Source of the DNA: Candidatus Latescibacterota bacterium
GTDB lineage: Bacteria > Latescibacterota > UBA2968 > GCA-2709665
Direction: 5' to 3'
Length of the DNA stretch: 64,000 nt
Assembly (NCBI GenBank): GCA_965237675.1
Contig: OZ250150.1
Coordinates: forward strand, 3,904,001-3,968,000
The position numbers and the translations under genes are program-made. Positions 22,330 through 48,630 of the stretch are shown piece by piece. Position 1 is the stretch's first letter. Every line of letters starts with the position of its first letter. The notes under the pieces were generated by a model. It saw nothing but the letters and a program-made list of their open reading frames with translations. It searched no databases and was not told the origin of the DNA.

Positions 22330-22544
22330 GCCGCCCGGGGGTCGGAGGTTGAAGTGCGGGTGTCTGTCGCCCCGCGTTCGTCAACAAAGATCGCGTGTTT
22401 CAGGTAAGTGGTAAGATCGGTCCCGCAATCGTGCACCCGCCTTGCGGTGAAATGTAGCGCATCATGCACGGGTTCTTGCGGCAACGATGGACATGGTACG
22501 TTGGTCTGTGTCGTCAGGCGAAAGTTTCCGCACCGAAAGGAAAC

Positions 22545-24803: not shown

Positions 24804-24834
24804 AATTCTGCGTCACACCGGAGCGTGAATTCAA

Positions 24835-25902
24835 TTGAACGCCGATAATCCGGAAAACCCCCGAAGCCTGTTGCAGCGCCTGGATGATGACGCGGTGATC
24901 TGCGCGGAGGGGTATCTGTTTGAACTCGAGCGTCGAGGGTATCTGCAGGCGGGCCCGTACGTGCCGGAAGTCGTGCTGGAACATCCTGAGGTCGTGGCCG
25001 GGCTGCACCGGGAATTCTGGCGTTCGGGCACGGATGTGATCGAGGCGTTTACGTATTACGCCCATCGGGAAAAACTGCGTCTTATCGGCAAGGAACATCT
25101 TCTGGAACCCTTACAGAAAAATGCGCTGGCAATCGCGAAAGCGGTTGCCGCCGAGGTCGGAGGAGAACGCCCACTCGTGGCCGGCAATATTTGTAATACC
25201 AACATTTGGGATCCGGCGGATCGCGCAACGGATGCGCGGGTTACCGCGATGTTCGACGAACAGGTGGCCTGGGCAGTTGAGGCCGGAGTCGATTACATGA
25301 TCGCGGAGACATTCTCGTTTTTCGGGGAGGCCGAGTTGGCCTTGGCGTCCATCAAGCGGGCTGGATTGTCGGCCGTGGTGACCTTTGCCCACCATCGGGA
25401 AGAAGGTTTACGGGATGGGGTCCTGCTGGATGAGGCGGCAGGACGTCTGGAGGGGGCGGGAGCGGAAGTGGTGGGTGTGAACTGTACCAGGGGGCCAGGG
25501 ACGATGCTGCCCGATGTCGAACGCATTCGGAGGGCGGTATCCTGTCACGTGGCGGCATTGCCGGTACCGTTTCGCACGACCGAAAATCAACCGACGTTCC
25601 AGTCGCTTCGGGAGCCGGGCCCTGAACCGCCGCCCACGGGACGGTCGTTTCCGACAGCACTGGACCCGTTCTCCTGCCACAGGTACGAGTTGGCCGAGTT
25701 TGCGCGTCGGGCGTACGATATGGGTGTCCGCTACCTGGGGGTTTGCTGCGGGGCCGGGCCTCATCACGTCCGGTCAGTTGCGGAAGAATTGGGCCGGGTC
25801 CCGCCCGCCAGCAGATACAGCCCGGACATGTCCAGGCACTATGCGCTGGGCAGCGATTCAAGCCTCAAGAGCCACAATCGGGAATTTATCGAAAAGCTGT
25901 GA
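24835..25902 (+). CDS. Betaine-homocysteine S-methyltransferase-like protein
   Basis: EGYLFELERRGYLQAGP..PEVVLEHPE.V..LHREF matches the BHMT N-terminus; AET, GVNC.RGP, YLGVCCG..PHH.R..AEEL. Confidence 0.85.
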   Translation: MNADNPENPRSLLQRLDDDAVICAEGYLFELERRGYLQAGPYVPEVVLEHPEVVAGLHREFWRSGTDVIEAFTYYAHREKLRLIGKEHLLEPLQKNALAIAKAVAAEVGGERPLVAGNICNTNIWDPADRATDARVTAMFDEQVAWAVEAGVDYMIAETFSFFGEAELALASIKRAGLSAVVTFAHHREEGLRDGVLLDEAAGRLEGAGAEVVGVNCTRGPGTMLPDVERIRRAVSCHVAALPVPFRTTENQPTFQSLREPGPEPPPTGRSFPTALDPFSCHRYELAEFARRAYDMGVRYLGVCCGAGPHHVRSVAEELGRVPPASRYSPDMSRHYALGSDSSLKSHNREFIEKL

Positions 25903-26060
25903 CAAATCCCGCGGCCACACCGTATCGGAATTGGTGTATTTTCTCGGAAATCGACCTGCGCCAACTGGGCGCGTGCGATCGAGTCCATCCCTGCTGACAG
26001 GTCCACGCAACGGCGCATGAGTCAGCTTGTCGTTGGACTCGACCCGGAGCGTTCAAGTCG

Positions 26061-27662
26061 ATGCGATCCTGCGCGGCTGCCATCGCGAAAACCTTGCACG
26101 ATGAAAAGGTCCGGTACGTATTCGGTCATCCGGGCGGCGAGGTCGTGGACCTGATCGACGCGCTTGAGAACGCGGGAATCCGATTCGTGCTGACCGGCCA
26201 CGAAGCTGCCGCCGCGTTTATGGCGAGCACGGTCGGGCGCCTGACCGGGACTCCCGGCGTCTGCATGGCGACGCTGGGGCCGGGCGGCTGCAATCTGGTC
26301 CTGGGTGTCGGCGCCGCGTTCCTCGACAGGGACCCGATGCTGGCCATTTCCGCGCGGAGTCTGGCATCGCGGGCAAGGATGAGCGAGAAGCAAAACCTGC
26401 GTCTCAATGAATTGTTCGATCCCATCTGCAAATGGTCCGTCTCGCTGGGAAATAACGGCGTGGAGCAGACGGTGCGGTCCGCGTTGTCGCTGGCGGGGGC
26501 GCCGCCGGCTGGCCCCGTATACCTCTCGTTACCGAATGATGTCGCCGTGGCAGATGCCGCCACCGGCACGGGCGCGTCGCCACCGTGTCCGATTCGTGTA
26601 TGCGAGGGGGATCTCGAAGATATAACAACAGCGTTGAATCGGGCCGAACGCCCCGTTGGCGTTGTGGGCGTTGCGTTGAATGCCCGGCGGGATTCTGCAG
26701 CCGTGCGTCGATTTTTCGCGGCATCGGGAATTCCCTACGTCGTTCTTCCACAGGCAAAGGGCATTGCGGATGAGTCGGGCCCCGGGTACCTGGGCACGGT
26801 GGCGTCGGCCGCCGGAGATGCCGTCCTTGTGAATCTGATACGGCGAAGCGATTGTTTACTGGGCGTGGGCTTCGATCCCGTGGAGTCGGCCCAGGACTGG
26901 CATCTTCGCCAACCGGTCTACTCTCTGGCCAATTCCTCGATCGCGTTCGGCGACTTTGAACCGGCCACGGAGTGCGTGGGTGACGTTGCCTCCCTGCTCG
27001 ACCGTTTGCTTGAGGGATACGACCGGGACGCCCGTTGGACAGCGGCCGAAATCCGCAACGCGCAGCATGCGGTAGCGGATGCGATTCGTCCGATGACGGC
27101 GTCCAGCCCCAATGGTCTTTCACCCTACCATCTGATGTGTGTCTTGTGCGATACGCTGCCCGAAGAGACCGTTCTTTCAACCGACGTGGGCGCCCACAAG
27201 ATGCTGATTTCGCAGGTCTGGCGGGCGCGTTCCCCGGGCGCGTTTCTGACTTCCAACGGCCTGTCCGCGATGGGGTACGGGCTGCCGTCGGCGCTGTCGG
27301 CCGCGCTGGTACGGCCCGGCCGGCCGGTAGCCGGTGTGTTCGGGGACGCCGGTTTCGCGATGATGGTTCAGGAATTGGAAACGGCGCGCAGGCTGGGACT
27401 GCGCCCCTTGCTGGTCGTGCTCTGCGACCGATCTCTGGCAATTGTCAAAGTCGCGCAGGACATGCGTAACATCCCGCACCGGGGGGTGGATTTCCATCCT
27501 GTGGATTGGGCAGTGGTCGCCGATGGATTTGGCGTGAGGGGAGAGACCGTGACCACCCTGGATGACATGCGGAGGGTGGGGGAGGAATGGCTGGCAAAAC
27601 CGCGGTTGACCGTTGTGGCGGCACGGGTGGATGACGAATTATACACTGCGTTGGAATATTGA
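26061..27662 (+). CDS. Thiamine-diphosphate-dependent enzyme, acetolactate synthase large-subunit-like
   Basis: VFGHPGG, HEAAAAFMA, TLGPG, TDVGAHK, SNGLSAMGYGLP, GDAGFAM. Confidence 0.9.
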   Translation: MRSCAAAIAKTLHDEKVRYVFGHPGGEVVDLIDALENAGIRFVLTGHEAAAAFMASTVGRLTGTPGVCMATLGPGGCNLVLGVGAAFLDRDPMLAISARSLASRARMSEKQNLRLNELFDPICKWSVSLGNNGVEQTVRSALSLAGAPPAGPVYLSLPNDVAVADAATGTGASPPCPIRVCEGDLEDITTALNRAERPVGVVGVALNARRDSAAVRRFFAASGIPYVVLPQAKGIADESGPGYLGTVASAAGDAVLVNLIRRSDCLLGVGFDPVESAQDWHLRQPVYSLANSSIAFGDFEPATECVGDVASLLDRLLEGYDRDARWTAAEIRNAQHAVADAIRPMTASSPNGLSPYHLMCVLCDTLPEETVLSTDVGAHKMLISQVWRARSPGAFLTSNGLSAMGYGLPSALSAALVRPGRPVAGVFGDAGFAMMVQELETARRLGLRPLLVVLCDRSLAIVKVAQDMRNIPHRGVDFHPVDWAVVADGFGVRGETVTTLDDMRRVGEEWLAKPRLTVVAARVDDELYTALEY

Positions 27663-27718
27663 CCTTTCCGTGCATGTGCGGCGGCGGGCCGACCGGACTG
27701 GGAACGTGAGGGGGCTCC

Positions 27719-29056
27719 ATGGGTTTACCGGAACACGTGAGGTATCTGATCATCGGCGCCGGGGTACACGGTCTGAGTACCGGCTACCACCTGGCGCGGG
27801 AGTTGAAAAGGCGGCGCCAGGGTTGCGGGCCGGACGTGCTGATTGTGGACAAGACGGGGGTGGCCGCGGGCGCTTCCGGTATCGCCTGCGGTGTGATCCG
27901 AAACAACTATTACCAACCTGCCATGCGCGAACTGATGGCGCACAGCGTCGAGATATGGGAGACCGATCCAGAGGCATTCAGTTATCACCCCGTTGGTTAC
28001 ATGCAGATCAGCCCTGAGTCGATGCACGAAGGTGTTGCAACCATCGCACAACAACAGTGTGAGATCGGTTACGAATCGGAGTTTATAGAAGGAGAAGCAG
28101 ACTGCATGAAGTATATGCGGGGTTTGTTTCACGACTGGCAGGCGAAGGGAATCACGTCCGTTCTGCACGAAAAAAGAGGGGGATACGCCAACAATCGTGC
28201 GTCGATGATCGGCCTGGCGTCGAAGGCCAGAAGCGAGGGCGTGGAGATACTGGAAGGCGTTGGGGTGGCCGGATTTCGGTACGATGGCGGGGCCATATCG
28301 GCCGTGGAAACGGATCAGGGCGTGATCCGGGTCGATGAGGTCGTGGTCGCCGTGGGACCGTGGGCGAAATTACTATGGGACCTGTTGGAACTACCCGCAT
28401 CAGTGAGCATCAAGGCTTCGGACGGCGCCGTACATCACGATATTCCAATGTGGACCTACTGGTGTCTGCAGGAAGGTACGCTGGGTGTGGACCCTCATTT
28501 TCTCAAGACAAACGACGGAAGGACGCCCCCGGTGATTCATCTGGATACGGACGAACCGCTGTTTTCGGACGTCGACGGTTCGCTGATAACAGATCGGATG
28601 TGGGGGATATATTACAAGCCCGACTTCCACTTTGGGGGTGTGCAGGGAGGCGGTATGCCCTACAGGGTGGAAAGACCAACGGACGAGGTCGCGGTGGACC
28701 CCTATGGCCCGGAGTCTCTCGATTTCATCGTTGGCGACCGATTCGCGCTGCAGTGGTGTTCCGCGCTGGCATTTTGTCAGAAGCGGTTTGAAGGAAAATC
28801 CCCGCTCTTTAAGAAAGAGCCATCCGGTGGCATTGGCGCGTTTACACCCGACAGTTTTCCGGTGTTCGACCGATTTCACAAGAACTGTTACATGATTGCG
28901 GATTCCAACCACGGGTACAAGATGATCGGAGTGGGTAAGCTCGTGGCGGAGGAACTCCTGGGCAAACGCTCCGACCTCCTGGAGCCGTTCCGTTTTACCC
29001 GCTATGCTGCGGGTAGGCTGCACCCGGTATCGAACAGCCCGTTTCCCTGGAGTTGA
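27719..29056 (+). CDS. FAD-dependent oxidoreductase, DAO family (sarcosine oxidase beta / N-methylglutamate dehydrogenase-like)
   Basis: IIGAGVHGLSTGYHLA, GASGIACGVIRNNY, FTPDSFP, HGYKM. Substrate not determinable from sequence. Confidence 0.85.
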   Translation: MGLPEHVRYLIIGAGVHGLSTGYHLARELKRRRQGCGPDVLIVDKTGVAAGASGIACGVIRNNYYQPAMRELMAHSVEIWETDPEAFSYHPVGYMQISPESMHEGVATIAQQQCEIGYESEFIEGEADCMKYMRGLFHDWQAKGITSVLHEKRGGYANNRASMIGLASKARSEGVEILEGVGVAGFRYDGGAISAVETDQGVIRVDEVVVAVGPWAKLLWDLLELPASVSIKASDGAVHHDIPMWTYWCLQEGTLGVDPHFLKTNDGRTPPVIHLDTDEPLFSDVDGSLITDRMWGIYYKPDFHFGGVQGGGMPYRVERPTDEVAVDPYGPESLDFIVGDRFALQWCSALAFCQKRFEGKSPLFKKEPSGGIGAFTPDSFPVFDRFHKNCYMIADSNHGYKMIGVGKLVAEELLGKRSDLLEPFRFTRYAAGRLHPVSNSPFPWS

Positions 29057-29232
29057 CTTCGACCGCAAACTTCTAAACACCCTGATCGCAAGGGTATGCA
29101 TCGAGCGCTGAACCTGTAATCCGGGCCCTGGATGTCAGAGCCTCCGAACCCTTTGTTGAAACCCGGGACCATGCATTCCACGGCCGCAGAACGGATATCG
29201 GGAAACCAGATTCAGGAACACAGACGGAGAAT

Positions 29233-30486
29233 ATGTCGATGCAACAACCCGACGTCAGGCGGCGAATGCGGGTTCGGCATACGGATTGGGGAGATGCTGT
29301 ACGCATTGATCTCAATCAACTGGGTGCACGGTTGCCGTCGCACAGCACGGACGGCGTGACATGGTCGGAAGCAACCAGCGAGGCTTTGCGGGACGAATGG
29401 TCGGAATCCCAGAACGAGGCGCTGTGCGACTCGATGACGGAGGTTGCTGCCGGTATGGGAGGGGGATTCGATTCGTTTGCCGAGTGGACGGTGTTGCACA
29501 ACAAGCTGTACGACGGCACGCACATGCGCGATGTGCGTCGGGCGCGGTTCACCCGGGGGTACCGCGCGGCGATCACGACGCTCGGCTGGGCGCATCCGAA
29601 GACCTTGCTTTCGACATGCATTCAGGCGGTGGGTTACGTGCCAAAAGATCGCGTGGAGTTCGAGCAGACCGCGTGGCGGCCGGAGTCAATGTACGATACC
29701 GAGTTCATGGCGCTTTCGCCGGCCGTGGTGACGAGGTTCGGCGGAGGTCGGCAGATACACCTGTCGGGTGTTGTGGCGTGGGACAAGGAAATCAATCCGC
29801 TATTCGAAGGGCAGCCGGAACGTCAGATTACCCACGTATTCGACCTCATTCAGGGTGTATTCGAGGAAGGCGGCGGAACGCTGTCCGACGTGGTCCGCCT
29901 GCGTCCATTCGCCCACTCAACCGACATTGCGAAGATTATCCGGTGCGAAGTGAACCGGCGCTGGGCCGGCCTCCCAGGGCCCGTCGTGCTGATGTCGGAC
30001 AGCCGGCGCTTTGGCGACCCGCCGAGGCTCTACACGGAAATTCAGGTCATGGGCGTCATGTCGGATGACCGGTTTGAGGTGGGGCACTCCGAAATTGAAC
30101 TTCCTCCGGGGGTACTGGACGACGGCACCACGGGGATTCGCAGCAGTCGTGCCCGCGACTGGGAACTGATTCAGGTGGGCGAACTGCGTGCGGCGCCGGG
30201 TGCGGGCCCCGCCCAGGAGGCGGAGCAGTTGGCCGCGCAAATGGCCGCTGTCCTCGAGCATGCCTCGCTCACACCAGACGACGTCTGCCTGACGTTTGCC
30301 TATATCAGTTCGCTTGAGATTGCCGGTGCGTTTTCGAAAGCTGTACCTCAGGCGGCGCCGTTGGACACGTTGCACGTGTTGCCGTGCCCCGCAATGCCGG
30401 AATTGGAGGGCCGTCATATCAAGGTTGAGATGACGGCAAGGAGACTCCTGAAGCCGGTCTCCCGGACGGGTTCCGGGGCGCTCTGA
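29233..30486 (+). CDS. Multidomain RidA/YjgF-like protein, apparently three tandem Rid-fold units
   Basis: Middle unit IHLSGVVA...QI..VF..I..V.EEGGG.LSDVVRL...YTEIQVMG; third unit L..ASL.PDDV...IKVEMTA; first unit degenerate. Confidence 0.6.
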   Translation: MSMQQPDVRRRMRVRHTDWGDAVRIDLNQLGARLPSHSTDGVTWSEATSEALRDEWSESQNEALCDSMTEVAAGMGGGFDSFAEWTVLHNKLYDGTHMRDVRRARFTRGYRAAITTLGWAHPKTLLSTCIQAVGYVPKDRVEFEQTAWRPESMYDTEFMALSPAVVTRFGGGRQIHLSGVVAWDKEINPLFEGQPERQITHVFDLIQGVFEEGGGTLSDVVRLRPFAHSTDIAKIIRCEVNRRWAGLPGPVVLMSDSRRFGDPPRLYTEIQVMGVMSDDRFEVGHSEIELPPGVLDDGTTGIRSSRARDWELIQVGELRAAPGAGPAQEAEQLAAQMAAVLEHASLTPDDVCLTFAYISSLEIAGAFSKAVPQAAPLDTLHVLPCPAMPELEGRHIKVEMTARRLLKPVSRTGSGAL

Positions 30487-36006: not shown

Positions 36007-36244
36007 TGAACACGAGCGCCGGTCGTCCGCGGTCCGAGGAATGGTACCGGCTTGAAAAATCCCATCTGCGCCGATATATCAACGCAAAACACAGTGTGAG
36101 TTCTGAATTGAAGCCCTCTGGGACGCACGGACCGCGTATGCCCCTTCCGGAGGGTCCTTTTTAGGCCTGCGGGTCGGGAAGCGCATTCGCACGAGCAACC
36201 AGCGATAAGACACCTGGCCACATCCTTTTCAAAGAGTTGAATCG

Positions 36245-39200: not shown

Positions 39201-39328
39201 CCCGGCTCAGGGCGCCGATGGCGGTGGCGGTTATCGGCGGGTTGGTGACGTCCACGCTGATGACGCTTGTGGTGATTCCGGTCGTTTACGAATTGATCGA
39301 ACGGGTCAGAATCAGGAGGGCGCCGTGA
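36245..39328 (+). CDS. RND permease (AcrB/AcrD/AcrF family)
   Basis: L.VDLLPD...P, GMLVDNAIVVIENI, ASTLTT..VFLP, MASLFES..HP, RLRPILMT, GGL.TST. Confidence 0.95.
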   Translation: MSLPEFSTKYPVTVAMATLAVALLGWISLARLDVDLLPDLRSPVITVDLRFPGKTPMEMEERYARRLEGDIGTVRHVKRVHSVSRSGQAVVIAEFEWDADMDFALLDVQKKVGRYAADPDITSLDVTQEDPHALPVMRLAVYGADWQDPDELLGSVETVIRPKLEGFPGVASVEIEGGAEKEIRVTLDSYLLEAFGVGSETVVSRIREANADVSGGTLKDGQRTYLVKGLGRLTDLQDVNNLVVGERRGGATNGQEDAPTQRVPVTVADVGTVALRYMERETIVRLDGMECVGLSVYKEAGANTSAVVNGVLRELEGLEADLAGVRFTVVENQARFVERAVNEVEEAAVLGALLALGVLLAALRQWTATLVIGLAIPISVLATFTLMYFQGLTLNVMTLGGLALGAGMLVDNAIVVIENIYRHIERGETAAEASIRGAGEVGVAILASTLTTVSVFLPIVYLHGLAGELFKEQAWTVAFSLISSLVVAMTLVPMLTARLFRRFPRRAPRAAGSAIFGRFLAASLNRKGRTMAVLVAFLLAAVYMARSIHTSFIPREDEGVLHVALALPEGTRLESTDRVARRVAAITQAVAGEEALHIYLRAGTDSNRLTAVGEPSGPNRAELTVVLAQRTDRRSVSELTTALDTAIREVPNIKVNYRLQKAALEGLIRGDAAPVQVEVSGENLALLRELTADLKRRMAGLRTVYNVRTSFQDGQPEVDVVLRPDVTAAFGLTAENLVRELGRRLGGEIVGELSKDQRARTIRVGFEDLDLRALKHARIDGPDGAMLTLGDLADLRVVHGPREILRDGQRRVGRVSAYLTEGVVLSQAATQIRQAVEQMAIPHGYRLTVTGEERERAESFAGLQFALLLSVVLVYMVMASLFESLLHPFTVMLTVPLAGIGVVFAFWSLGEAFGVMAFIGAIMLGGIAVNDAIILVDRINQLRRDTGDLRTAVLQGAQDRLRPILMTSATTILALLPMAVGVGEGARLRAPMAVAVIGGLVTSTLMTLVVIPVVYELIERVRIRRAP

Positions 39329-42300
39329 TTCTCCCCGATCTTGCCGTCCGGAGGCCGGTAACGACGTCCATGTTTTTCTCCGCATTGGCCATATTGGGTG
39401 TCGTGTCTTGGACCCGGCTTCCGGTACAGCTCTTTCCGGAGCTGATTTTTCCGGAAGTCTTCGTCACGCTCACGCTGCCCGGAGCGACTCCGGAACAGGT
39501 TGAAAGGGATCTGGTGATTCCGGCCGAAGGGGAGATTGGCAAGCTTGACGGGGTCCAGGAGATGGAGTCGTTTGCGATGGCAAATATGGGTGGCGTAAGG
39601 ATATCCTATGCCCCGGACGTGGATATGAAATTCGCCCTGCTTCAGCTCCAGAGCAACCTGAACAGATTACAGCCGACACTGCCCGAACGATCGCAAACTG
39701 ATGTACGGAGGTTTGATTCGACAGATCTGAGCAGCATCATCATGGAGCTTCACGTACTTGCCGATTGGGATCTGAACCAGCTCCGGGAGTTCACCGAGGA
39801 AAAGATCCGTCCTGAACTGGAGTCTATAGACGGTGTCGTGAATGTGTCCGTTATGGGTGGGCGGCGCAGTGCCGTGGAAATTGTCCTGGATCCGTTCCTG
39901 CTCGAGGCGCATGGACTTTCGACCGGACAGGTACGGGAACGCCTGAACAACTACAACCGGCGACGGGAATACCTGGGTCGCGTATATGACGGGAACAGGG
40001 CCTATTCGGTGAGCATTCAGGGACAGTTTACGGATCTGCGCCAGATCCGTAATCTGGTGTTGAACACGGACGGCACCCTCAGACTGGGCGACGTATCCCG
40101 GGTGGGATACGGACTGCAGGAACAGGCCGATCGTCACAGAGTCAACGGCAAACCTTCGGTGGGGGTCCGAATCCAGAAAGACGACGAAGCGAATCTGATC
40201 GAGGTGGCCGCGGCCGTCGAAGCGGCCATTGGCCGGCTGAATCGGGATTTCAAAGGCGAGGGCGTGGAATTGGGCGTGAGTTCGTCTCAGGCGGATCTGA
40301 TGTCCGGGGCGCTATCCACTCTGAAACAGGCGGCCATTGTAGGCGCTGTCCTCGGACTGATCGTGCTTTTTCTGTTTCTTCGAAACTTTCGTTTTGTCTC
40401 GGTCCTCCTGCTGGCCATTCCGGTTTCTCTTCTGATGACCTTTAATCTGATGTACCTGGGCGGGCTATCCGTAAACGTCCTGTCCCTTTGCGGCCTTGCC
40501 CTCGCGATGGGAATGCTTGCCGACAACGGCATTGTCGTGATGGAGAATATCTTCAAGCATTACGAGCGTGGAAAATCCCCTGTCCATGCAGCGCGTGACG
40601 GGGCGGCTGAGGTCGGGCGCGCGGTGGTCGCGGCAACCGCAACCACGGTAACCGCTTTTTTGCCTGTTTTGTTTATCGAGAGCGACGCGCGGGACCTGCT
40701 CCGTGAACTGGCGTTGTCCATGGCGTTTCCTCTTATGGCCTCCCTGCTGGTGGCGCTGACACTCGTACCGGCCCTGGCGGTGCGGGCACTGAGCCGCGAG
40801 GTCCGGCGACCACCCGATGTCCGTGGCTTGCTGGAACGGTATACGCTGTTGTTGAAAGCCGCCCTGCGGCACCGCGCGTTGGTGGCCCTGTCCGTAGGAG
40901 GTGCCCTTACACTGACACTCGTCGTGGCCTTCTATTACCTGCTTCAGCAGCAGGTACGGAGAGAGGAAACGCGATTTACGGTCTATGTGAACCTGCCGGA
41001 AGGGGCCACGCTGGATGCTACCGATGAAGTCGCGAAACAGGTGGAAGAATCTGTGCGTGACGTTCCCGGGCTGGATCGATTCACAACGTCGGTTCGGGAG
41101 GCGGAATCCAGCGTTACTGTCTTGCTGGAAGATCGGTCTGACCGGCCCGGCGACATCTCACTGGATGAAATCAAAGAACAACTCGACGAAAAACTGCAGA
41201 ACGTACAGGGCGGCGTGGTAGGGTACGAGCCCAGGCCACGGGCGGGGAGGGGCGGTCGTGGGCAGGGAATAGGACAGCGTCGGAGACGCAGTTCGGGTGG
41301 ATTCGATCTGACCGGGGCCACCCCGAACGAGCAGGCCGTGGTTCGAGGATACGACTTCACTTTACTGACAATGATTGCCAACGACGTGGTGTACCGCCTC
41401 GAGGAACTGGAGGAGGTCGACGCCAACAGCGTCCGCGCGGACGCCGAACGGAGTTCGCCCGAGGTTCAGGTGATACCCGATGCGGCGGCTCTGTTCGACA
41501 GGCAGCTTGGGACACGGGAGGTGTTGGCCGCAATGGGTGATACCCGTTGGGACGGTTTCCGTACCACCGTACCGTTTCTCCTGCCCGACGCAACCGAGAT
41601 ACCCATTGAAGTGCGTACAATTGAAGAGGAGGACCGGGACCGGTACGGGCTGGCTGAATTCAAGCGCTCCCGCATTCTCAACCAGGTCGGGCAGTACGTG
41701 TCTCTGGACGAAGTCGCGCGTGTTCGAACGGATGAAGGCAGGAGCAACCTGTTGAGGACCGACCAGGCCCGTCGGATCGTGGTTTCGTACCGGTTTCCTT
41801 CGGAAATTCTCGATTCACAACCGCGGTTGGAGACCGCGAGACGTGTCGTACGGACGACTCTTCAGGATATGGTGCTGCCGGAGGGCTATTCGATCGAAAT
41901 AACAGAGGCACAGGAGGAGACGATTTACTATTGGATGATGGGAGTTGCCGCGGTGCTCATCTACATGATTCTGGCCTCGCTGTTTGAATCTTTCGCGTCT
42001 CCGGTCATCATTCTGTGTACGCTACCACCCGCGGCCATTGGTTCCTGTTGGGCGCTGATGATGTCGGGTACGGGTCTGAGCCAGCAGGAGGGGCCCATGG
42101 CGCTGCTGGGCTTTGTTGTCCTGCTGGGCATTGCCGTGAATAACGGGATTATCCTGATCGATGCAGTCGGCGTGCTCAGGTCCCGATTCGGTTATCGCCG
42201 GGAACGCGCGGTATTGGCGGCGGCACGGTCCCGGGTACGACCGATATTGATGACGACGGCCACAACGCTTCTGGGCGTCCTACCGCTCGCTCTGGTATTC

Positions 42301-44037
42301 GGAGGCGACTTTGAAATCTGGCCGCCGTTTGCAATCACCGTTCTGGGCGGGTTGTCGGTTTCCATGGTGTCCACACTGATCCTGATTCCGGTCGTTTACA
42401 TGGGGCTGGACCAGATCGGAGCCTGGCTGGCCGATATGGGGTTTATCGGCGTCACTCTCTCACTGCTGGCTACAGCGGCGGCCGGCTATGGCGTATATAC
42501 CCGGTATGACAGCGTCTTCTGGGCGGCCCTGTCGATATTGCCTATCTGGGTTGTGTTCTTGTCAGCGGTGTGGATCGTACTGAAGGTCCATCGCGCTCGA
42601 GTGTCCGCCCGTCGCGTGGCGGACGCCGTGTATTCCATTCAGTTGCGGAATCTGACGAAGACCTACGGCGCGCCCGGGCGATTTGCACGCGAGTGGGCGC
42701 GAAGCGAACGTCGGAGAGGGCGGTTGATGGAAACGGGGTTGGATCCGCAGGACCGCAAGGCGGTCCGGGATACTCTTTTCTGGAAGCTGCCGTTACTCGC
42801 CCTGTTGCTGTTTTTTGCGGCCTATTTCGAGGATGAAATCTGGATCTATCTGCACGGGGTGGCGCTGGCCTTTATGCTGGCCCATGTGGGTCAATGTTTC
42901 GGCGCCCTCTGGCGCGGGCAAACGTCGGCACCGGTCACTCGCATCGGCGACTTTCTTCGTAAAGTGGTTCTGCCACTGGGATTTCTGGCCTATGTGCACT
43001 GGCGGCTGAACCTGCTTTCCGTCACGATTGCATCGTTCGGGTTGTGGGTTGTCTATCGTCTGGCGCGGCGGCTCGCGAACAGGGTGCGGACGGGCAAGGT
43101 AAACCCCGACGAAATGTCCGGACGGGTTGGATGGGCACGCCGATGGGTCTATCGGATGGCATCGGCCTTACCTCTTATAGGGGTTCCCCGGCCGGCATTT
43201 CGGGCGCTGGCGGGCGTCAACCTGGAGATTGGCAGGGGGATGTTCGGTCTCTTGGGCCCGAATGGCGCCGGTAAGACCACGTTGATGCGTATTCTCTGCC
43301 GGGTTCTCGAGCCCAGCTGCGGGTCAATTCTGATCGATGGTCGAAACATCCTGAGAAGGGGTTCGATTCATGGGCTGATCGGGTATCTTCCGCAGCACTT
43401 CGGTAACTATGGACATCTTTCCGCATACGAATTCCTGGAATACCGGGCGCTGCTGGAAGGCTTTAAGGACCGAAAAACCCGGGAGACGCGGGTGATCGAG
43501 TCTCTGGAACAGGTCAATCTGATCGAGCGGAAGGAAGATCCGATCGGATCCTTCTCCGGTGGCATGAAGCAGCGCCTGGGCATCGCGCAGACCCTGTTGC
43601 ACACTCCGCTGATCGTGGTCGTGGACGAGCCCACTGCGGGGCTCGACCCGCTGGAGCGCATCCGGTTTCGCAACCTGCTCGCCCGTTTGAGCCAGGATCG
43701 GATCGTCATTTTTTCCACGCACATCGTGGAAGACATCTCAGGAAGCTGCAATCGACTGGCGGTACTGGATCAGGGGCGCCTACTGTATACCGGAACGCCA
43801 CAGGAGATGAGAAACCTGGCAGAGGGACGGGTGTGGGATGCGGTTGTGCCGGACCGGCGCTTTTCCGAACTCGAAGAAAAACTGAAGCTCGTAACGCATC
43901 AGCGAACGTCAGCCGGGGTCCGAATGCGATTCTTGTCCGATCGCCCACCGGTTGGCGTCGGCGCGCAGAGCGCGGATCCAACGCTTGAAGACGCTTATCT
44001 TTACCTTCTTGGCAGGGGAAAGGAACAGCCGTGCTGA
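39325..44037 (+). CDS. RND permease fused to extra TM segments and a C-terminal ABC ATPase domain (1570 aa)
   Basis: GTG 39325 follows AGGAGG and overlaps the upstream stop (GTGA). RND motifs GMLADNGIVVMENI, LASLFES, RVRPILMT; then GPNGAGKTT, GYLPQ, FSGGMKQR, VVDEPTAGLDP, STH in one uninterrupted frame. Confidence 0.9.
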   Translation: MILPDLAVRRPVTTSMFFSALAILGVVSWTRLPVQLFPELIFPEVFVTLTLPGATPEQVERDLVIPAEGEIGKLDGVQEMESFAMANMGGVRISYAPDVDMKFALLQLQSNLNRLQPTLPERSQTDVRRFDSTDLSSIIMELHVLADWDLNQLREFTEEKIRPELESIDGVVNVSVMGGRRSAVEIVLDPFLLEAHGLSTGQVRERLNNYNRRREYLGRVYDGNRAYSVSIQGQFTDLRQIRNLVLNTDGTLRLGDVSRVGYGLQEQADRHRVNGKPSVGVRIQKDDEANLIEVAAAVEAAIGRLNRDFKGEGVELGVSSSQADLMSGALSTLKQAAIVGAVLGLIVLFLFLRNFRFVSVLLLAIPVSLLMTFNLMYLGGLSVNVLSLCGLALAMGMLADNGIVVMENIFKHYERGKSPVHAARDGAAEVGRAVVAATATTVTAFLPVLFIESDARDLLRELALSMAFPLMASLLVALTLVPALAVRALSREVRRPPDVRGLLERYTLLLKAALRHRALVALSVGGALTLTLVVAFYYLLQQQVRREETRFTVYVNLPEGATLDATDEVAKQVEESVRDVPGLDRFTTSVREAESSVTVLLEDRSDRPGDISLDEIKEQLDEKLQNVQGGVVGYEPRPRAGRGGRGQGIGQRRRRSSGGFDLTGATPNEQAVVRGYDFTLLTMIANDVVYRLEELEEVDANSVRADAERSSPEVQVIPDAAALFDRQLGTREVLAAMGDTRWDGFRTTVPFLLPDATEIPIEVRTIEEEDRDRYGLAEFKRSRILNQVGQYVSLDEVARVRTDEGRSNLLRTDQARRIVVSYRFPSEILDSQPRLETARRVVRTTLQDMVLPEGYSIEITEAQEETIYYWMMGVAAVLIYMILASLFESFASPVIILCTLPPAAIGSCWALMMSGTGLSQQEGPMALLGFVVLLGIAVNNGIILIDAVGVLRSRFGYRRERAVLAAARSRVRPILMTTATTLLGVLPLALVFGGDFEIWPPFAITVLGGLSVSMVSTLILIPVVYMGLDQIGAWLADMGFIGVTLSLLATAAAGYGVYTRYDSVFWAALSILPIWVVFLSAVWIVLKVHRARVSARRVADAVYSIQLRNLTKTYGAPGRFAREWARSERRRGRLMETGLDPQDRKAVRDTLFWKLPLLALLLFFAAYFEDEIWIYLHGVALAFMLAHVGQCFGALWRGQTSAPVTRIGDFLRKVVLPLGFLAYVHWRLNLLSVTIASFGLWVVYRLARRLANRVRTGKVNPDEMSGRVGWARRWVYRMASALPLIGVPRPAFRALAGVNLEIGRGMFGLLGPNGAGKTTLMRILCRVLEPSCGSILIDGRNILRRGSIHGLIGYLPQHFGNYGHLSAYEFLEYRALLEGFKDRKTRETRVIESLEQVNLIERKEDPIGSFSGGMKQRLGIAQTLLHTPLIVVVDEPTAGLDPLERIRFRNLLARLSQDRIVIFSTHIVEDISGSCNRLAVLDQGRLLYTGTPQEMRNLAEGRVWDAVVPDRRFSELEEKLKLVTHQRTSAGVRMRFLSDRPPVGVGAQSADPTLEDAYLYLLGRGKEQPC

Positions 44038-44753
44038 ACTGGCATGAATTGCTGCTGACCTGGTGGCGGCTCTATCGGCTTAGCTGCAGAATCATATTTC
44101 ACAGGAAATTGATGTTCATGGCTATTGGTGTTCTCGTTTATTACGCTGCCATGTATGCATTTGCGGTCTGGCGGCCCAGCGAAGGATTCGGCGTATCGCG
44201 GGCGCTCAATGTTCTGGTTGAAATTCCCGGCATCGCCCTGGCCATTTATCTGACGATGGATCTGGTTGCGGGCGAACGAGATAGAAATACACTGGAAACG
44301 CTGTTCAGTACCACGTCGTCCCACTATAAGATCTGGGCGATTCGTATGCTCGGAGTCTATTTCGTGTTGGCGGCCACCCTGATGGGTATGACGGTGGTTG
44401 CCTATTTTGTTTTCGCGGAGTTGCCTATCTTTTGGGGCGGGCTGAATGCTTTTCTGCCTGCGTGCCTTGCCGCGGGGCTCACTTTTTATTTTTCTGTTCT
44501 CTGTCGAAGCGGCAATGCGGCCGCGATGCTCGCTACGGGAGTGATGGGCCTGACTGTGTTCATCTCGGAATCCATGCCAGATTCACCCTTCGCGCTTTTT
44601 CTGAGTACGTTTGATCCCCCGGTGGGAATGGAAGGCACCCTTTGGGGCGACCAGATGCTGCTGAATCGCCTGGGTGTAATATTGCTGTCGGGTTTGCTGC
44701 TTTTTATGGGCCTCCGGAAGATGGAAGCCAGGGAGCGATTGGTTTCTTCCTGA
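44031..44753 (+). CDS. ABC-2-type permease-like membrane protein
   Basis: About six hydrophobic segments; ABC-2 loop GERDRNTLETLFST; overlaps the upstream stop. Confidence 0.8.
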   Translation: MLNWHELLLTWWRLYRLSCRIIFHRKLMFMAIGVLVYYAAMYAFAVWRPSEGFGVSRALNVLVEIPGIALAIYLTMDLVAGERDRNTLETLFSTTSSHYKIWAIRMLGVYFVLAATLMGMTVVAYFVFAELPIFWGGLNAFLPACLAAGLTFYFSVLCRSGNAAAMLATGVMGLTVFISESMPDSPFALFLSTFDPPVGMEGTLWGDQMLLNRLGVILLSGLLLFMGLRKMEARERLVSS

Positions 44754-44920
44754 TGTTGAAAAGTGACTTACGTGCGCAAGTCACGCTAATTGAGGTCTAC
44801 TGAAGATATCTATTTCATTTTAAATTGGATAGTCTGTCGGTACGTTTTCTTCCTCAATGACATATCCGCTAGTTTACGTTGTGTTCTGAATTAATGACTC
44901 TTGATGGCCTTCCGTGTTTA

Positions 44921-45505
44921 TCACTCAGATTCCCATTCGTTTGGAATCGAACAACTGTTTTGGGCGGCCCAGCGACGTGCCTGCTCGTAAAAGTCCTTAA
45001 ACGAACCTGATCCAGCAATCCAAGATCTCAATGATGTTGTTGAAACGTAGTTGCAGACTCGTGCTTTTCCCAGTTCTTTGTCACGTCCAGTCAACCCGAA
45101 TCTCCGCTTTACAAAATCAGAAGGGTTGTCCCTCGGTATCTCTTCCTCCTTACATTCCAGTTCGCGGGCAAGCGAGCCCCGGTCAATTGCCAGCCACCAT
45201 TCTATATTTTGGTCAGCCACGCCAAATACGGTCAGATGACGGAGATTTTCGGGAATCCGAGCGCCCTCGCGATTTTTGACCTCACGCCAGGGATTGTTAT
45301 CGGCATCCGTCAACACAACCAGTATGTTACATCCTTCATGGCTATTTAAGACCTGGAGATTCTTGGCAATCTCTCGCCTGTGAGATTCCTTCGACCCACC
45401 TCGATATCGCCCCGGTGCCAACTCCGCAGCAGGACACCAGCGTTCTTTCAGCCCCCGGACGACTGCTTCATCCATATCCCCCTGGACATAAAATCCAATC
45501 TTCAT
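44921..45505 (-). CDS. TOPRIM-like (DUF4276/RloB-type) protein coupled to the upstream ATPase
   Basis: N-terminal strand IGFYVQGDMDE, central VVLTDAD, later NIEWWL; ATGA overlap with the ATPase. Confidence 0.6.
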   Translation of the reverse strand: MKIGFYVQGDMDEAVVRGLKERWCPAAELAPGRYRGGSKESHRREIAKNLQVLNSHEGCNILVVLTDADNNPWREVKNREGARIPENLRHLTVFGVADQNIEWWLAIDRGSLARELECKEEEIPRDNPSDFVKRRFGLTGRDKELGKARVCNYVSTTSLRSWIAGSGSFKDFYEQARRWAAQNSCSIPNEWESE

Positions 45506-46689
45506 CCCAACAACCCCCGAAAATGCTGTTCTCCCAGCGGGAATTGTTCAAGGCGCGCCTTCAGATTATCGATATTCGGTTGCGAAATTGAAGTGTGCTG
45601 TTCGTCGCGATTAAGCACAAAGACCGCATCCAAATATTGATCGAATAGATCGATAAAATACGGTGCATGCGAGGTAAAAACGACCTGAGGGCCTTGCGAC
45701 TGTTCGATCAATTCGAACAAGGATTTCAATAAACCGACATAAATTCCATTTTCCGGCTCTTCAATTATTAACAACGGTCGGGTATCAACGATTGGCTGCA
45801 TCAACAAAACATAGGTTAGGGCCAAGAATCGCAACGTGCCACTCGATGCACTCCATGCTGGGTATGCACTCCGGTCTGCATATTCGAAAATCATGTTCAC
45901 TTGGTTTGAAAAAACCTCAAAGTTGATTAGTTCAAGTCTTGGGTCCACTTCTTTTATTACATTCAGAAGCTGGCGATAATCCCACTCCCGGGACGTTTTT
46001 AGCCTGTAGAGTAACGAGGCGAGATTGCTGCCATCGCGAGCGAGGACGACTTCATTTGGGTTGTGTTCCGACGACCTCATTGCAATAGGGGATAGATCAT
46101 AAGAGCACCAAGTGCTCAAATAACGTTTAAAGTGATTAGCCCGTGCATTCGAATCCGAATCATAGAGCCGCTGCAGCATCGTTGTATCTGCGGGTGGGCT
46201 TGCCTCAACATAGTTCTCAGTTCCATCAATGAAATCCTTCTCATGCAAAAGGCGAATCCGACCATTGGAATGATGGAGCAGGGCAGTTTGATCGAATTTT
46301 CCGCCGGTAACGATCAATTTCTCTCGGGTAACTCTAATTGTAGATTCTTCTCCAGAAAAAGCATTCGTACTAATAGAGAACCCCGGTAGCGATATCGTCA
46401 GTTCATATTCAAATGTGTGAACATCGTGCATAAAGGGAACATCTGCTCGCAGATAGAAATCTATGGTTTGTTTATTAAACGCGAAATTCGTCAAACCAAA
46501 TCGCCAACTTTGGATCAAAGACACGCAATCGTCTAGCTTCAAGACAGAACTAGCAGCAACAAACTGCAATGCCTGGCAGAGATTGGTCTTTCCGGAGTTG
46601 TTTTTCCCTATAATTAGATTGATTTGACGCGGCTCAAATACAATATTAATCAAAGACTTAAAATTATCGACGCGAAATTCTTTCAACAT
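45502..46689 (-). CDS. ABC-type ATPase of the AAA_15/AAA_21 (OLD/AbiEii-like) class
   Basis: RBS GGAGG; NFKSL, Walker A GKNNSGKT, signature ASSGT, Walker B LLIIEEPENG, H-loop FTSHAP; AT-richer than the flanks. Confidence 0.9.
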   Translation of the reverse strand: MLKEFRVDNFKSLINIVFEPRQINLIIGKNNSGKTNLCQALQFVAASSVLKLDDCVSLIQSWRFGLTNFAFNKQTIDFYLRADVPFMHDVHTFEYELTISLPGFSISTNAFSGEESTIRVTREKLIVTGGKFDQTALLHHSNGRIRLLHEKDFIDGTENYVEASPPADTTMLQRLYDSDSNARANHFKRYLSTWCSYDLSPIAMRSSEHNPNEVVLARDGSNLASLLYRLKTSREWDYRQLLNVIKEVDPRLELINFEVFSNQVNMIFEYADRSAYPAWSASSGTLRFLALTYVLLMQPIVDTRPLLIIEEPENGIYVGLLKSLFELIEQSQGPQVVFTSHAPYFIDLFDQYLDAVFVLNRDEQHTSISQPNIDNLKARLEQFPLGEQHFRGLLG

Positions 46690-46742
46690 TACAAGCCTCC
46701 TAAACAGACGTGGCCTGAACAGTGGTTTTGCCAATAGATGGT

Positions 46743-46785
46743 AACATAAGACCCACATGGCCTCAGGTCAAATCATTTGACCTGA
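46743..46785 (-). promoter_or_regulatory. Putative promoter of the ATPase operon overlapped by a perfect 11-bp inverted repeat
   Basis: Minus strand TTGACC (46771-46766), 17 nt, TATGTT (46748-46743). Palindrome TCAGGTCAAAT-C-ATTTGACCTGA at 46763-46785. Confidence 0.55.
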
Positions 46786-47077: not shown

Positions 47078-48220
47078 CTATTCTTTGCGTACATCCAACC
47101 GGACCTTGCGGGGTTCTACCTTTACGACCGTCAGATCCGTCCCGTGTGTTATCGACTCGGTGTCAAACTCGAAGGTTCTGCGTCCGTACCTGACGTAGGC
47201 GGCATCGATAACGAGGCTGAAGTCCACCACAGACGCCAGTAGCAGGGCGCGTCGTGTTCCCTTTACGGTTACGCTCACCGCGGGGGGTTTGACGCCCTCC
47301 AGCGAGTATCCCTGTGGTAAGTTCTCCACACTGACACCCACCTCGTACGTCGTTTCCTGCACCGCCGCGCCGGGTACCAGCAACATCCATGCACCGAAGG
47401 CCAGCGCGAAGGAGAGCAGCCCTTCGCCGAGATGCCGGGCCAGCCGGCCGCGCTGGATCCGGCCCGCACCGACCACCGCGTGCTGAACGTGCTCCTGTAA
47501 CCTGGCCAGCAATTCGTCAGGATCGTCTATAGTCTCCAGTCGACCCTGCCGCGCGACGGCGATGGTGCCGCGCTCCTCGGAAACCACAATGCAAAGGGCG
47601 TCGCTGCGCTCGGCCAGCCCCAGTGCCGCGGCGTGGCGCGTGCCTCCCGGCCCGAGTTCGCCCCGGTTTTCCGAAAGCGGCAGATATACGGCAAAGCGCT
47701 CCAGCCTGTCTTCGCGCATCACCAGCGCACCGTCGTGGCCCGCCGATGTCGTGCCGAAAATGCTGTCGATGAGTTCCTCGCTAATGGTCGCTTGCAAGGC
47801 GATCCCGCCTTGTAAATACCGCTCCAGGGGCTCACGTCCGGGCAAAACCACCAGGGCGCCGCGTCGCCTCGCCACCAGCTGATGCATCGCTCGAACCAGG
47901 ACCGCCAGACTGCCACCGCGGGGCCTGGATACCCTCTGGCCCAGACCCAGTGCGGCGATCCGCTCGAAGAGCCGACGCAGGTCGTCTTGAAACACCACGA
48001 CGAGCAGTACGACGAGGACGGCGAAAAAACCTTGGAAAATCCACGCAGTCAGTTGCAGTTCGAATTGCCGCGCCAGCAGATAGAAAGCGCCGAGAAAAGC
48101 CAGCCCGATAAGCGCCATTCGGGCGTGCATCCTCCGAGTCCAGGCCAACAGGCCCCACAACAGGACGCCCACGACCACTATATCCACAAAATCCGTAAAT
48201 GCGATTTCAAGTAACGTCAT
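47078..48220 (-). CDS. Membrane diadenylate cyclase (CdaA/DacA-type) fused to a TM segment and a YbbR-like domain
   Basis: Three N-terminal TMs, VVVFQDDLRR.FERI, GALVV, HDGA, YLPLS, GTRHAAALGLAE.SDA.CIVVSEERG; C-terminal NLP.GY...P..VSVTVKG.R, VEP.KV. Confidence 0.88.
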   Translation of the reverse strand: MTLLEIAFTDFVDIVVVGVLLWGLLAWTRRMHARMALIGLAFLGAFYLLARQFELQLTAWIFQGFFAVLVVLLVVVFQDDLRRLFERIAALGLGQRVSRPRGGSLAVLVRAMHQLVARRRGALVVLPGREPLERYLQGGIALQATISEELIDSIFGTTSAGHDGALVMREDRLERFAVYLPLSENRGELGPGGTRHAAALGLAERSDALCIVVSEERGTIAVARQGRLETIDDPDELLARLQEHVQHAVVGAGRIQRGRLARHLGEGLLSFALAFGAWMLLVPGAAVQETTYEVGVSVENLPQGYSLEGVKPPAVSVTVKGTRRALLLASVVDFSLVIDAAYVRYGRRTFEFDTESITHGTDLTVVKVEPRKVRLDVRKE

Positions 48221-48630
48221 ATCCAATGATCTTCCGGCTGGCGAAATCAGTCGTTTGGGGGCGCGAGAATACCCAACGATGTGCGTCTTGCTCCTGGTCC
48301 GGAATATGGGCAAACTTTCACATTTCGTCAAGACCCCCCGGATCCCTTTTTTACGACCGATTATCGTCGAAACCCGGGGGCCCCGGCGGTAAATCCGTCG
48401 CTCGTTTCGGGGTTGGGCGTCTGCGGGAAACCGCTGTTGCCGCCGATCCCGCTCATCACGTCATGCGGTAACACCCGGGGGCCGGGCATGAACGTCCTGC
48501 AAAACAACCCTGCGGATCTCGTCTTTCATTTGGTCAGTCCTGTGAAAATGCATATATTTAGAGACATTCGGGACCGACCGGAAATCGATATCTTGTAATC
48601 TGACGCTGTTTTTGGACGGAGGAAAGCGAT

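Follow-up and report, generated by a model that had tools for sequence, protein, structure and literature searches.

The window, a 64,000-nucleotide (nt) stretch of contig OZ250150.1 from Candidatus Latescibacterota bacterium (positions 3,904,001 to 3,968,000), encodes a protein in which a resistance-nodulation-division (RND) permease is joined in frame to the ATPase of an ATP-binding cassette (ABC) transporter. RND pumps are proton-driven trimers, ABC transporters are ATP-driven dimers, and the two are treated as separate answers to one problem. The fusion gene, RND_B::NBD2, combines the permease RND_B with the nucleotide-binding domain (NBD) NBD2. It is the fifth of six co-oriented genes, NBD1, TMD1big, MFP, RND_A, RND_B::NBD2 and TMD2small (Table 1). 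Comparison of homologues indicates that the fusion is genuine and selectively maintained. We propose that it hard-wires an ABC-2 exporter to a two-paralog RND pump, the whole using both ATP and the proton-motive force (PMF), a reading that we regard as probable, if not firmly so.

The fusion gene occupies positions 39325-44037 (+) as a single open frame of 1570 residues that runs to its stop codon with zero internal stops. Its start codon is a GTG at 39325, which shares the sequence GTGA with the stop of the upstream RND_A gene. The longest open reading frame (ORF) counted from the first start codon opens at 38962; the start at 39325 is favoured because the homologues are about 1570 residues long. 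In the N-terminal part, the Pfam family ACR_tran aligns over residues 5-1027 (profile positions 3-1019 of 1021, E 6.8e-183), a coverage that corresponds to a full-length RND permease with 12 transmembrane (TM) helices and two large periplasmic loops. ABC_tran aligns over residues 1297-1438 (E 8.7e-27). The RND motifs ADNGIV and RVRPILMT are located at residues 399 and 970, and the ABC motifs GPNGAGKT, LPQ, FSGGM, VVDEPT and FSTH at residues 1311, 1355, 1410, 1432 and 1463, respectively. An earlier, sequence-only reading had described one 1570-residue frame containing a complete AcrB-type permease with the two RND motifs, extra hydrophobic helices and a full ABC domain (Walker A, Q-loop, FSGG, DEP and H-loop). 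All of these elements were recovered, the extra helices as six long helices between residues 1031 and 1255 of an AlphaFold2 (AF2) model.

The top NCBIfam model for the RND part is RND_permease_2, at 526 bits and hence below its cut-off of 1250. For the fused ATPase, the top models are drrA and GldA, of the ABC-2 class, both below their curated cut-offs, and the nearest solved structures by sequence are ABCA-type NBDs and bacterial ABC-2 ATPases. These comparisons class RND_B as a divergent member of the RND superfamily (HAE-1-like) and the fused ATPase as a member of the ABC-2 class (DrrA/GldA/ABCA-like).

The same architecture was found in many other sequences. When the C-terminal 541 residues were searched against long proteins only, both PF00873 and PF00005 were present in 120/120 long proteins among the matches listed. 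These proteins are mostly 1540-1650 residues long and share 38-84% identity with the query in the C-terminal part (100% for the window's own sequence); their source names include Gemmatimonadota, Latescibacterota, Acidobacteriota, KSB1 and Krumholzibacteria. A search of shorter proteins brought in fragments from Bacteroidales, Prolixibacteraceae, Odoribacter and Mangrovibacterium. In the protein Atlas, several clusters of 64-143 members each contain both domains in 100% of their members. Since the architecture stays the same down to 38% C-terminal identity, the fusion goes far beyond chance.

Genome by genome, the fused module was present in 37/41 relatives up to order level, with a single match apiece, and in 82 of the 168 genomes of the phylum of the window organism, always with one match per genome. 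The open frame reaches at least 1550 residues in 71 of these 82 matches; the remaining 11 have shorter frames and lie mostly on short contigs. In all nine fetched loci with full context, a single frame encodes the fusion. The phylum of a Bacteroidales metagenome-assembled genome (MAG) was sampled evenly; 4/401 genomes contained the module, the query's own genome G168 included, and it is rare there. A search of named genomes was dominated by generic ABC ATPases, and the module was matched from its start in 2 of the best 80 loci. The fused module occurs in two sequence classes, at about 55-60% and about 42-44% identity, side by side in a single family-level group (f4), which suggests old subfamilies or lateral transfer.

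The junction between the RND part and the linker (position 42411) is spanned without listed indels by contigs from two other studies (Table 1); run X1, which covers the entire stretch, may be the window's own source. The sequence-only reading had singled out positions 42400-43300 for a check of this kind and had allowed that the fusion might be unique to this assembly, or interrupted at the junction by a stop or a frameshift. As the homologous loci carry one frame and the contigs crossing the junction are free of indels, neither situation was encountered. Disrupted copies occur in a few relatives: the frame changes between residues ~1116 and 1143 in genome G081 and between residues ~911 and 939 in G059, and one TAA lies within the match in each of G059 and G060. 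Two of the shorter frames, those of G081 and G059, were inspected; their breaks fall inside domains, none at the RND/ABC border, and are therefore uninformative on separability. No clean split form, with RND and ABC parts apart, was found among the at least 120 shorter matches listed, which are mostly on contigs below 5 kb or named 'partial'; a few shorter matches on long contigs (P0137, P0139, P0141, P0155 and P0232) lay outside this inspection. The disrupted copies are what an assembly artefact, a read-through of two genes or a pseudogene has in its favour. Against such an origin stand the 1570 codons without a stop, the frame lengths across the phylum with most exceptions on short contigs, the indel-free junction and the invariant catalytic motifs described below, and we consider it exceedingly improbable.

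Both halves of the fusion are conserved. An alignment of 109 full-length proteins was made from the window's own sequence and 108 database clusters of 1480-1660 residues. On its ABC side, the Walker A sequence GPNGAGKT, the Q-loop Gln, SGGM, the Asp-Glu of Walker B and the His of the H-loop do not vary (109/109). All motifs expected of an ABC ATPase, from Walker A, Q-loop and signature through Walker B and its catalytic Glu to D-loop and H-loop, are likewise found in 109/109. On the RND side, D400 and N401 in TM4, N939 in TM10, and R972 and T977 in TM11 are invariant (109/109); R970, also in TM11, is present in 108/109 and N940 in 105/109. This pattern indicates that purifying selection acts on the RND and ABC halves alike.

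In alignments to MdtB (9lyq_B) and to 6ows_A, D400 matches the first TM4 Asp of AcrB-type pumps, N401 the second, N939 the TM10 Lys, R970 the TM11 Arg and T977 the TM11 Thr. In AcrB itself, the corresponding relay residues are D407, D408, K940, R971 and T978. The motif strings with the TM4 Asp and the TM11 Arg/Thr also occur in the unfused RND_A of 10/10 loci. RND_A carries the same Asn substitutions as RND_B; hence, they belong to the subfamily and are not specific to the fusion. The Asp, Arg and Thr retained in both paralogs fit PMF coupling of the RND halves. The earlier proposal that an ATP-driven module is tethered in frame to a PMF-type RND permease gains support, the PMF drive itself being read from conserved residues. 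We also considered whether the Asn-Asn pair of TM10, found in RND_B of 105/109 proteins, could be the sign of a proton-dead fused RND. The RND_A of the window reads Asn-Asp at this position, yet both Bacteroidales RND_A proteins read Asn-Asn; since the pair is not specific to the fusion, the idea was dropped.

The C-terminal module (residues 1030-1570) was modelled with AF2 from a 101-row alignment (mean predicted local distance difference test, pLDDT, 91.2; predicted template modelling score, pTM, 0.79). Two long helices (1031-1061 and 1064-1096) are followed by a beta strand (1104-1114) and an amphipathic helix (1119-1136). Then come four long helices (1144-1164, 1171-1196, 1202-1228 and 1231-1255) and a short one, before the second strand of the NBD starts at 1292. 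In this model, NBD2 is interrupted between strands 1 and 2 by about 175 residues of helices. The detached first strand contains the strand-like sequence LTKTYG about 190 residues ahead of Walker A, with K1112 and Y1114 present in 109/109 proteins (family pattern LTKxYG). In NBD1, the counterpart GLTKIY, aligned by eye, continues directly into the second strand with no insertion. At this point, NBD1 has the contiguous arrangement of beta1, beta2 and Walker A that NBD2 lacks. The A-loop aromatic of ABC ATPases stacks on the adenine. By analogy, the invariant Y1114 is probably this residue, which would explain why the detached strand has been retained.

The NBD insertion is kept across the family with few gaps in the 109-protein alignment. 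A query made of linker and insertion (266 residues) matched 48 proteins among 1.84 billion representatives. All 16 matched proteins of at least 1500 residues align at about residues 1019-1306, the others being shorter pieces, so that linker and insertion seem to be confined to the fused family. Judging from helix lengths and hydropathy, six of the helices (two plus four) are putative membrane helices; starting from the cytoplasmic end of TM12, they would leave all pieces of the NBD in the cytoplasm. Foldseek matched the NBD and C-terminal domain only (4yer, TM_1403, E 4.7e-23; NosF; ABCA) and returned no match to the six extra helices of the module. A cryptic ABC-2 permease was also considered for these helices and rejected at the sensitivity of hhalign, which gave a probability of 0.2% against the ABC-2 permease family. 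The split NBD would show that strands 1 and 2 of the ABC fold can be separated by a sizeable membrane insertion.

The gene neighbourhood of the fusion is conserved. RND_A, which shares 31-34% identity with the RND part of the fusion in related loci, lies 5' of it in 10/10 loci (the window, L020-L026, L027 and L028), and in the same 10/10 loci two tandem RND paralogs stand behind one MFP gene. The succession TMD1big, MFP, RND_A, fusion and TMD2small is kept in 7/7 loci from the same taxonomic order, with NBD1 adjacent in 4/7. The two Bacteroidales loci have the same gene order (2/2), with an extra ORF inserted before MFP, assigned to the TolC family by NCBIfam in one of them, and NBD1 about 14 kb upstream in both genomes. 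In a distant clade of the phylum of the window organism (42-44% identity), NBD1 is directly upstream of TMD1big in 8/8 loci checked. TMD2small is 3' of the fusion in 20/20 loci. The organism's own genome has five TolC-family (OEP) genes elsewhere, none of them within the window. In terms of gene content, the MFP gene of the cluster and these OEP-family genes supply the partner set of a tripartite pump. Neither FtsX nor MacB_PCD is among the Pfam matches of the cluster proteins. The only sizeable intergenic space of the cluster is the 238-nt gap between MFP and RND_A (36007-36244), where a weak site resembling a terminator lies at 36142-36154 (+). Scans for promoters and terminators yielded counts at the level of shuffled sequence (6 vs 6.5 and 17 vs 15.3) and defined no operon boundaries. 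None of the listed sequencing runs that contain the stretch is recorded as RNA.

Sequence comparison makes NBD1 the nearest paralog of NBD2 in the genome: the two share 46% identity (E 1.9e-73), and the next ABC protein 39% (E 1.5e-36). A maximum-likelihood tree was built from 35 NBD2 sequences (the window's own and 34 drawn at random from the other 108), 13 NBD1 sequences and six other ABC NBDs of the organism's own genome. In this tree, rooted at the midpoint only and with outgroups on long branches, NBD2 (support 97/97) and NBD1 (99/92) are reciprocally monophyletic sisters, jointly set apart from the six other NBDs (97/95). The topology fits one old duplication of which one copy was fused, and the fusion may have a single origin. 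Two further loci, L137 (G027:C1:1456000-1472000) and L138 (G089:C1:4432000-4447000), contain paralogous NBD1-like and TMD1big-like pairs without RND, MFP or TMD2small homologues. The neighbours of the L137 pair are GT4/GT28-type glycosyltransferases and a radical SAM protein.

The cluster encodes two ABC-2 permeases. The GTG start codon of TMD2small (44031) overlaps the stop codon of the fusion (44037). TMD2small has 98 homologues, some named NosY-type permease by JGI; those at 84-85% identity are named 'Gemmatimonadota bacterium' by a source. A conserved loop at residues 85-96 contains the invariant E89 and L91. Because the family match of TMD2small is below threshold, its pairing with the NBD2 module was chosen for complex prediction. 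The predicted complex scored 0.68, as compared to 0.00 for the best of three controls; the mark applied is reached by 58/80 solved complexes and 2/110 mismatched pairs, counts that are approximate given the custom alignments used. At least 81% of the contacts agree between runs, and the partner pLDDT is at least 73. The N-terminal helix of TMD2small and its residues 85-96 contact module residues 293-354 around the Q-loop. Hence, TMD2small is predicted to dock on the fused NBD in the canonical ABC-2 coupling geometry.

TMD1big has about seven helices in residues 1-302 (ABC-2), followed by about 820 residues. In its AF2 model (mean pLDDT 77.5, pTM 0.68), the top Foldseek match is IRAP/ERAP (E 8e-18, about 650 columns, 10-12% identity). 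The M1 peptidase motifs HExxH and GxMEN are missing from TMD1big-type proteins (27/27 sequences), so that the M1-like domain is probably a binding scaffold and not an enzyme, and Pfam Peptidase_M1 gave no match in TMD1big. The protein seems to be an ABC permease/M1 aminopeptidase that has become a pseudo-enzyme. Its seventh helix would place the M1-like domain in the periplasm.

How these components could work together is outlined in the following scheme. Its split fold and docking are taken from models, and we infer how the parts assemble, in which stoichiometry, what energy they use and how the substrate is handed on. RND_A and RND_B would assemble into a heterotrimer that, together with MFP and an outer-membrane channel, makes up an RND pump driven by the PMF through the TM4 Asp and the TM11 Arg/Thr. 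The two extra helices after TM12, together with the four-helix insertion, would hold NBD2 at the membrane beside the trimer. There, NBD2 would bind TMD2small via the usual ABC-2 coupling helix, giving an ATP-driven half-transporter. NBD1 and TMD1big could complete it, with one NBD2 per trimer (A2B), as favoured by the sister-paralog relation and the strict synteny. Alternatively, a second RND_B::NBD2 could do so (AB2), with TMD1big as the second permease, as favoured by the three loci without an adjacent NBD1 and by the lone paralogous pairs. The ABC-2 unit would move or extract a substrate at the inner membrane using ATP, and the conduit formed by RND, MFP and OMF (outer-membrane factor) would expel it using the PMF.

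A more specific version is possible but doubtful: a single trans-envelope machine burning both ATP and PMF, in which an A2B trimer carries one NBD2 paired with NBD1, and a heterodimer of TMD1big and TMD2small is built in and feeds the RND-MFP-OMF conduit. One NBD2 per A2B trimer would resolve the clash between three-fold and two-fold symmetry. The MdtBC heterotrimer reportedly has the stoichiometry B2C. In the A2B machine, TMD1big would contribute its inactive M1-like periplasmic domain, and the ATP-driven unit would capture or flip the substrate and pass it directly to the RND conduit.

Several observations weigh against coupling an ABC-2 exporter to the RND pump in these ways. The NCBIfam scores of the RND and NBD parts are all under curated cut-offs, and in the RND halves Asn takes the place of both the second TM4 Asp and the TM10 Lys found in AcrB-type pumps (N401 and N939 of RND_B, each 109/109). 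NBD1 lies away from the cluster in 3/7 order-level loci. The joint occurrence of the fusion and TMD1big across the 168 genomes of the phylum speaks for the scheme, with both present in 77, both absent in 82, the fusion only in 5 and TMD1big only in 4, but kin genomes are not independent, so that these counts overstate the support and are descriptive only; all nine discordant genomes are at most 90% complete. Nothing marks an NBD heterodimer, because NBD1 and NBD2 both have fully canonical motifs. Since the paralogous NBD1/TMD1big-like pairs stand alone, NBD1/TMD1big may be an autonomous homodimer and not half of a heterodimer. These lone pairs sit by glycosyltransferases in 2/2 paralogous loci examined, a context that faintly hints at a glycoconjugate as the cargo of this ABC-2 family. 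Like complexes, such as NosFY, have already been solved; the docking result may therefore be a memory of solved complexes between NBDs and transmembrane domains, and would then reflect likeness, not binding. Apart from residues 1114-1115, TMD2small makes no confident contact to the region of the six extra helices.

This last point, together with the lack of detectable ABC-2 homology, means that the six helices may pack on the RND domain instead. A dimer of NBD2, with NBD1 or with another NBD2, could then act on RND_B through these helices, so that ATP would drive or gate the RND permease and TMD2small would be an accessory. In favour of this, the stretch of helices from TM12 to the NBD core is conserved and was modelled with confidence, and Asn stands in place of the second TM4 Asp and of the TM10 Lys. 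However, RND_B keeps D400, R972 and T977 throughout the family and R970 in all but one protein, the relay motif strings recur in RND_A, and the Asn substitutions are common to it. In addition, a dedicated ABC-2 permease, apparently coupled in translation, follows the fusion in every one of the loci inspected and is predicted to sit in the coupling groove of the NBD. An ATP-driven RND permease is, on this evidence, distinctly unlikely. The fusion could also be a passive tether, whereby two independent transporters of one pathway were joined for co-localisation or equal dosage with no mechanical or kinetic coupling. Fusions of genes for pathway partners are common, and in both paralogous loci the NBD1/TMD1big-like pair has no RND partner nearby. 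This reading sits poorly with the lack of a clean split form among the shorter matches listed and with the retention of the fusion to 38% identity and across phyla. The elaborate and conserved splitting of the NBD by membrane helices argues for precise geometry, and we find a mere tether unlikely.

The exporter-pump reading can be set against known systems. As in MdtABC, tandem RND permease genes stand behind an MFP gene, and MdtB (9lyq_B) is the best solved-structure match to the TM4 and TM10-12 segments of the fusion. HAE-1 RND pumps are described as rarely heterotrimers, with MdtBC as an example (PMC8277102). Unlike in MdtABC, one of the two paralogs described here bears six extra helices and an ABC ATPase, Asn replaces the second TM4 Asp and the TM10 Lys of the AcrB-type relay, and two ABC-2 permeases and a stand-alone NBD are encoded in the same cluster. 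The fused NBD resembles DrrAB, GldA, NosFY and ABCA, by its families (drrA, GldA) and its structural matches (TM_1403, NosF, ABCA). The six-helix NosY-like permease at the 3' side, with its predicted docking via the coupling loop and the Q-loop groove, is a further likeness to NosFY-type systems. In contrast to the DrrAB and NosFY exporters, the NBD is covalently joined to an RND permease and is broken between beta1 and beta2 by about 175 residues of helices. MacAB-TolC likewise spans the envelope with an ABC ATPase, an MFP and a TolC-type channel, but MacB is an FtsX-type permease, whereas the present ATPase is joined to a proton-type RND. Finally, TMD1big has the layout of the ABC permease/M1 aminopeptidases, an ABC-2 membrane domain and then an M1-aminopeptidase-like fold. 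Clusters of this type are listed in the Atlas (score 0.88, taken as a lead only); unlike them, TMD1big lacks HExxH and GxMEN and has an appended Golvesin_C domain.

Overall, the unusual features are the covalent RND-ABC join, the split NBD and the pseudo-peptidase permease. The RND-ABC architecture is already visible in databases, where it is unexplained; an automatic JGI annotation reads 'multidrug efflux pump subunit AcrB/ABC-type multidrug transport system ATPase subunit'. No description of a natural RND-ABC fusion was found in the open full-text literature, subscription journals and supplements lying outside the search, which is consistent with the earlier remark that no characterised example was known. 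A natural and widespread RND-ABC fusion offers a way to ask how transporters that work from cytoplasm to periplasm couple to those that work from periplasm to the outside. It also bears on how three-fold and two-fold assemblies are reconciled, and on whether one efflux machine can draw on two sources of energy. The family occurs commonly in soil and sediment phyla that have received little study, and its substrate may be an envelope or secreted component there.

Table 1 Features of the RND-ABC fusion gene, its cluster and the contigs spanning its junction. Positions refer to the window; residue numbers are those of the fusion protein or, for AF2 helices and strands, of the modelled module.
Feature	Position	Strand	Evidence
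RND_B domain, fusion residues 1-1027	39325..42405	+	ACR_tran 5-1027; D400, R972, T977 in 109/109, R970 in 108/109
Linker hairpin, two long helices, residues 1031-1096	42415..42612	+	AF2 module helices 2-32, 35-67; block pLDDT mostly 91-96; hydropathy peaks 1031-1049, 1068-1086
Detached NBD first beta strand LTKTYG, residues 1104-1115	42634..42669	+	AF2 module strand 75-85; K1112, Y1114 in 109/109
NBD insertion, residues 1116-1290	42670..43194	+	One amphipathic, four long, one short helix; AF2 module helices 90-107, 115-135, 142-167, 173-199, 202-226, 240-252
NBD2 core and C-terminal domain, residues 1291-1570, plus stop	43195..44037	+	ABC_tran 1297-1438; motifs 109/109; Foldseek 4yer (TM_1403), NosF, ABCA
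NBD1, stand-alone ABC-2-type ATPase, 307 residues	30578..31501	+	ABC_tran E 8.4e-31; NCBIfam drrA, GldA below cut-off
TMD1big, ABC-2 permease with M1-aminopeptidase-like fold and Golvesin_C, 1125 residues	31508..34885	+	ABC2_membrane_3 E 1e-7; Golvesin_C E 4.3e-15
MFP, periplasmic adaptor, 375 residues	34879..36006	+	TIGR01730 RND_mfp 181 bits vs cut-off 94.9; Pfam HlyD_D23
RND_A, unfused RND permease paralog, 1027 residues	36245..39328	+	ACR_tran E 7.2e-224
TMD2small, six-helix NosY-like ABC-2 permease, 240 residues	44031..44753	+	ABC2_membrane_2 19.7 bits, below cut-off
Junction-spanning contig, X3 record 9	41838-42680		No indels listed
Junction-spanning contig, X4 record 18	42381-43290		No differences
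Junction-spanning contig, X6 record 26	42212-42454		No indels listed

Other features of the window flank the cluster on both sides. Upstream and co-oriented (22464-30486, +) are genes for a DMFA2_C/Laminin_G_3 protein, a homocysteine S-methyltransferase, a thiamine pyrophosphate (TPP) enzyme, a DAO-type oxidoreductase and a RidA-like protein; no evident link between these genes and the transporter cluster was found, their synteny with it being left unchecked. Downstream, a patch of low guanine-cytosine (GC) content follows the cluster (GC 0.49 at 44001-46000, as compared to ~0.59 around it). Two genes in this patch, directly 3' of the transporter cluster (44921-46758, -), match the candidate anti-phage system HEC-01 (HEC-01A ATPase, E 1.4e-37; HEC-01B, E 6e-7). 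They are followed at 47078-48331 (-) by a CdaA-type diadenylate cyclase with DAC, CdaA_N and YbbR-like domains.

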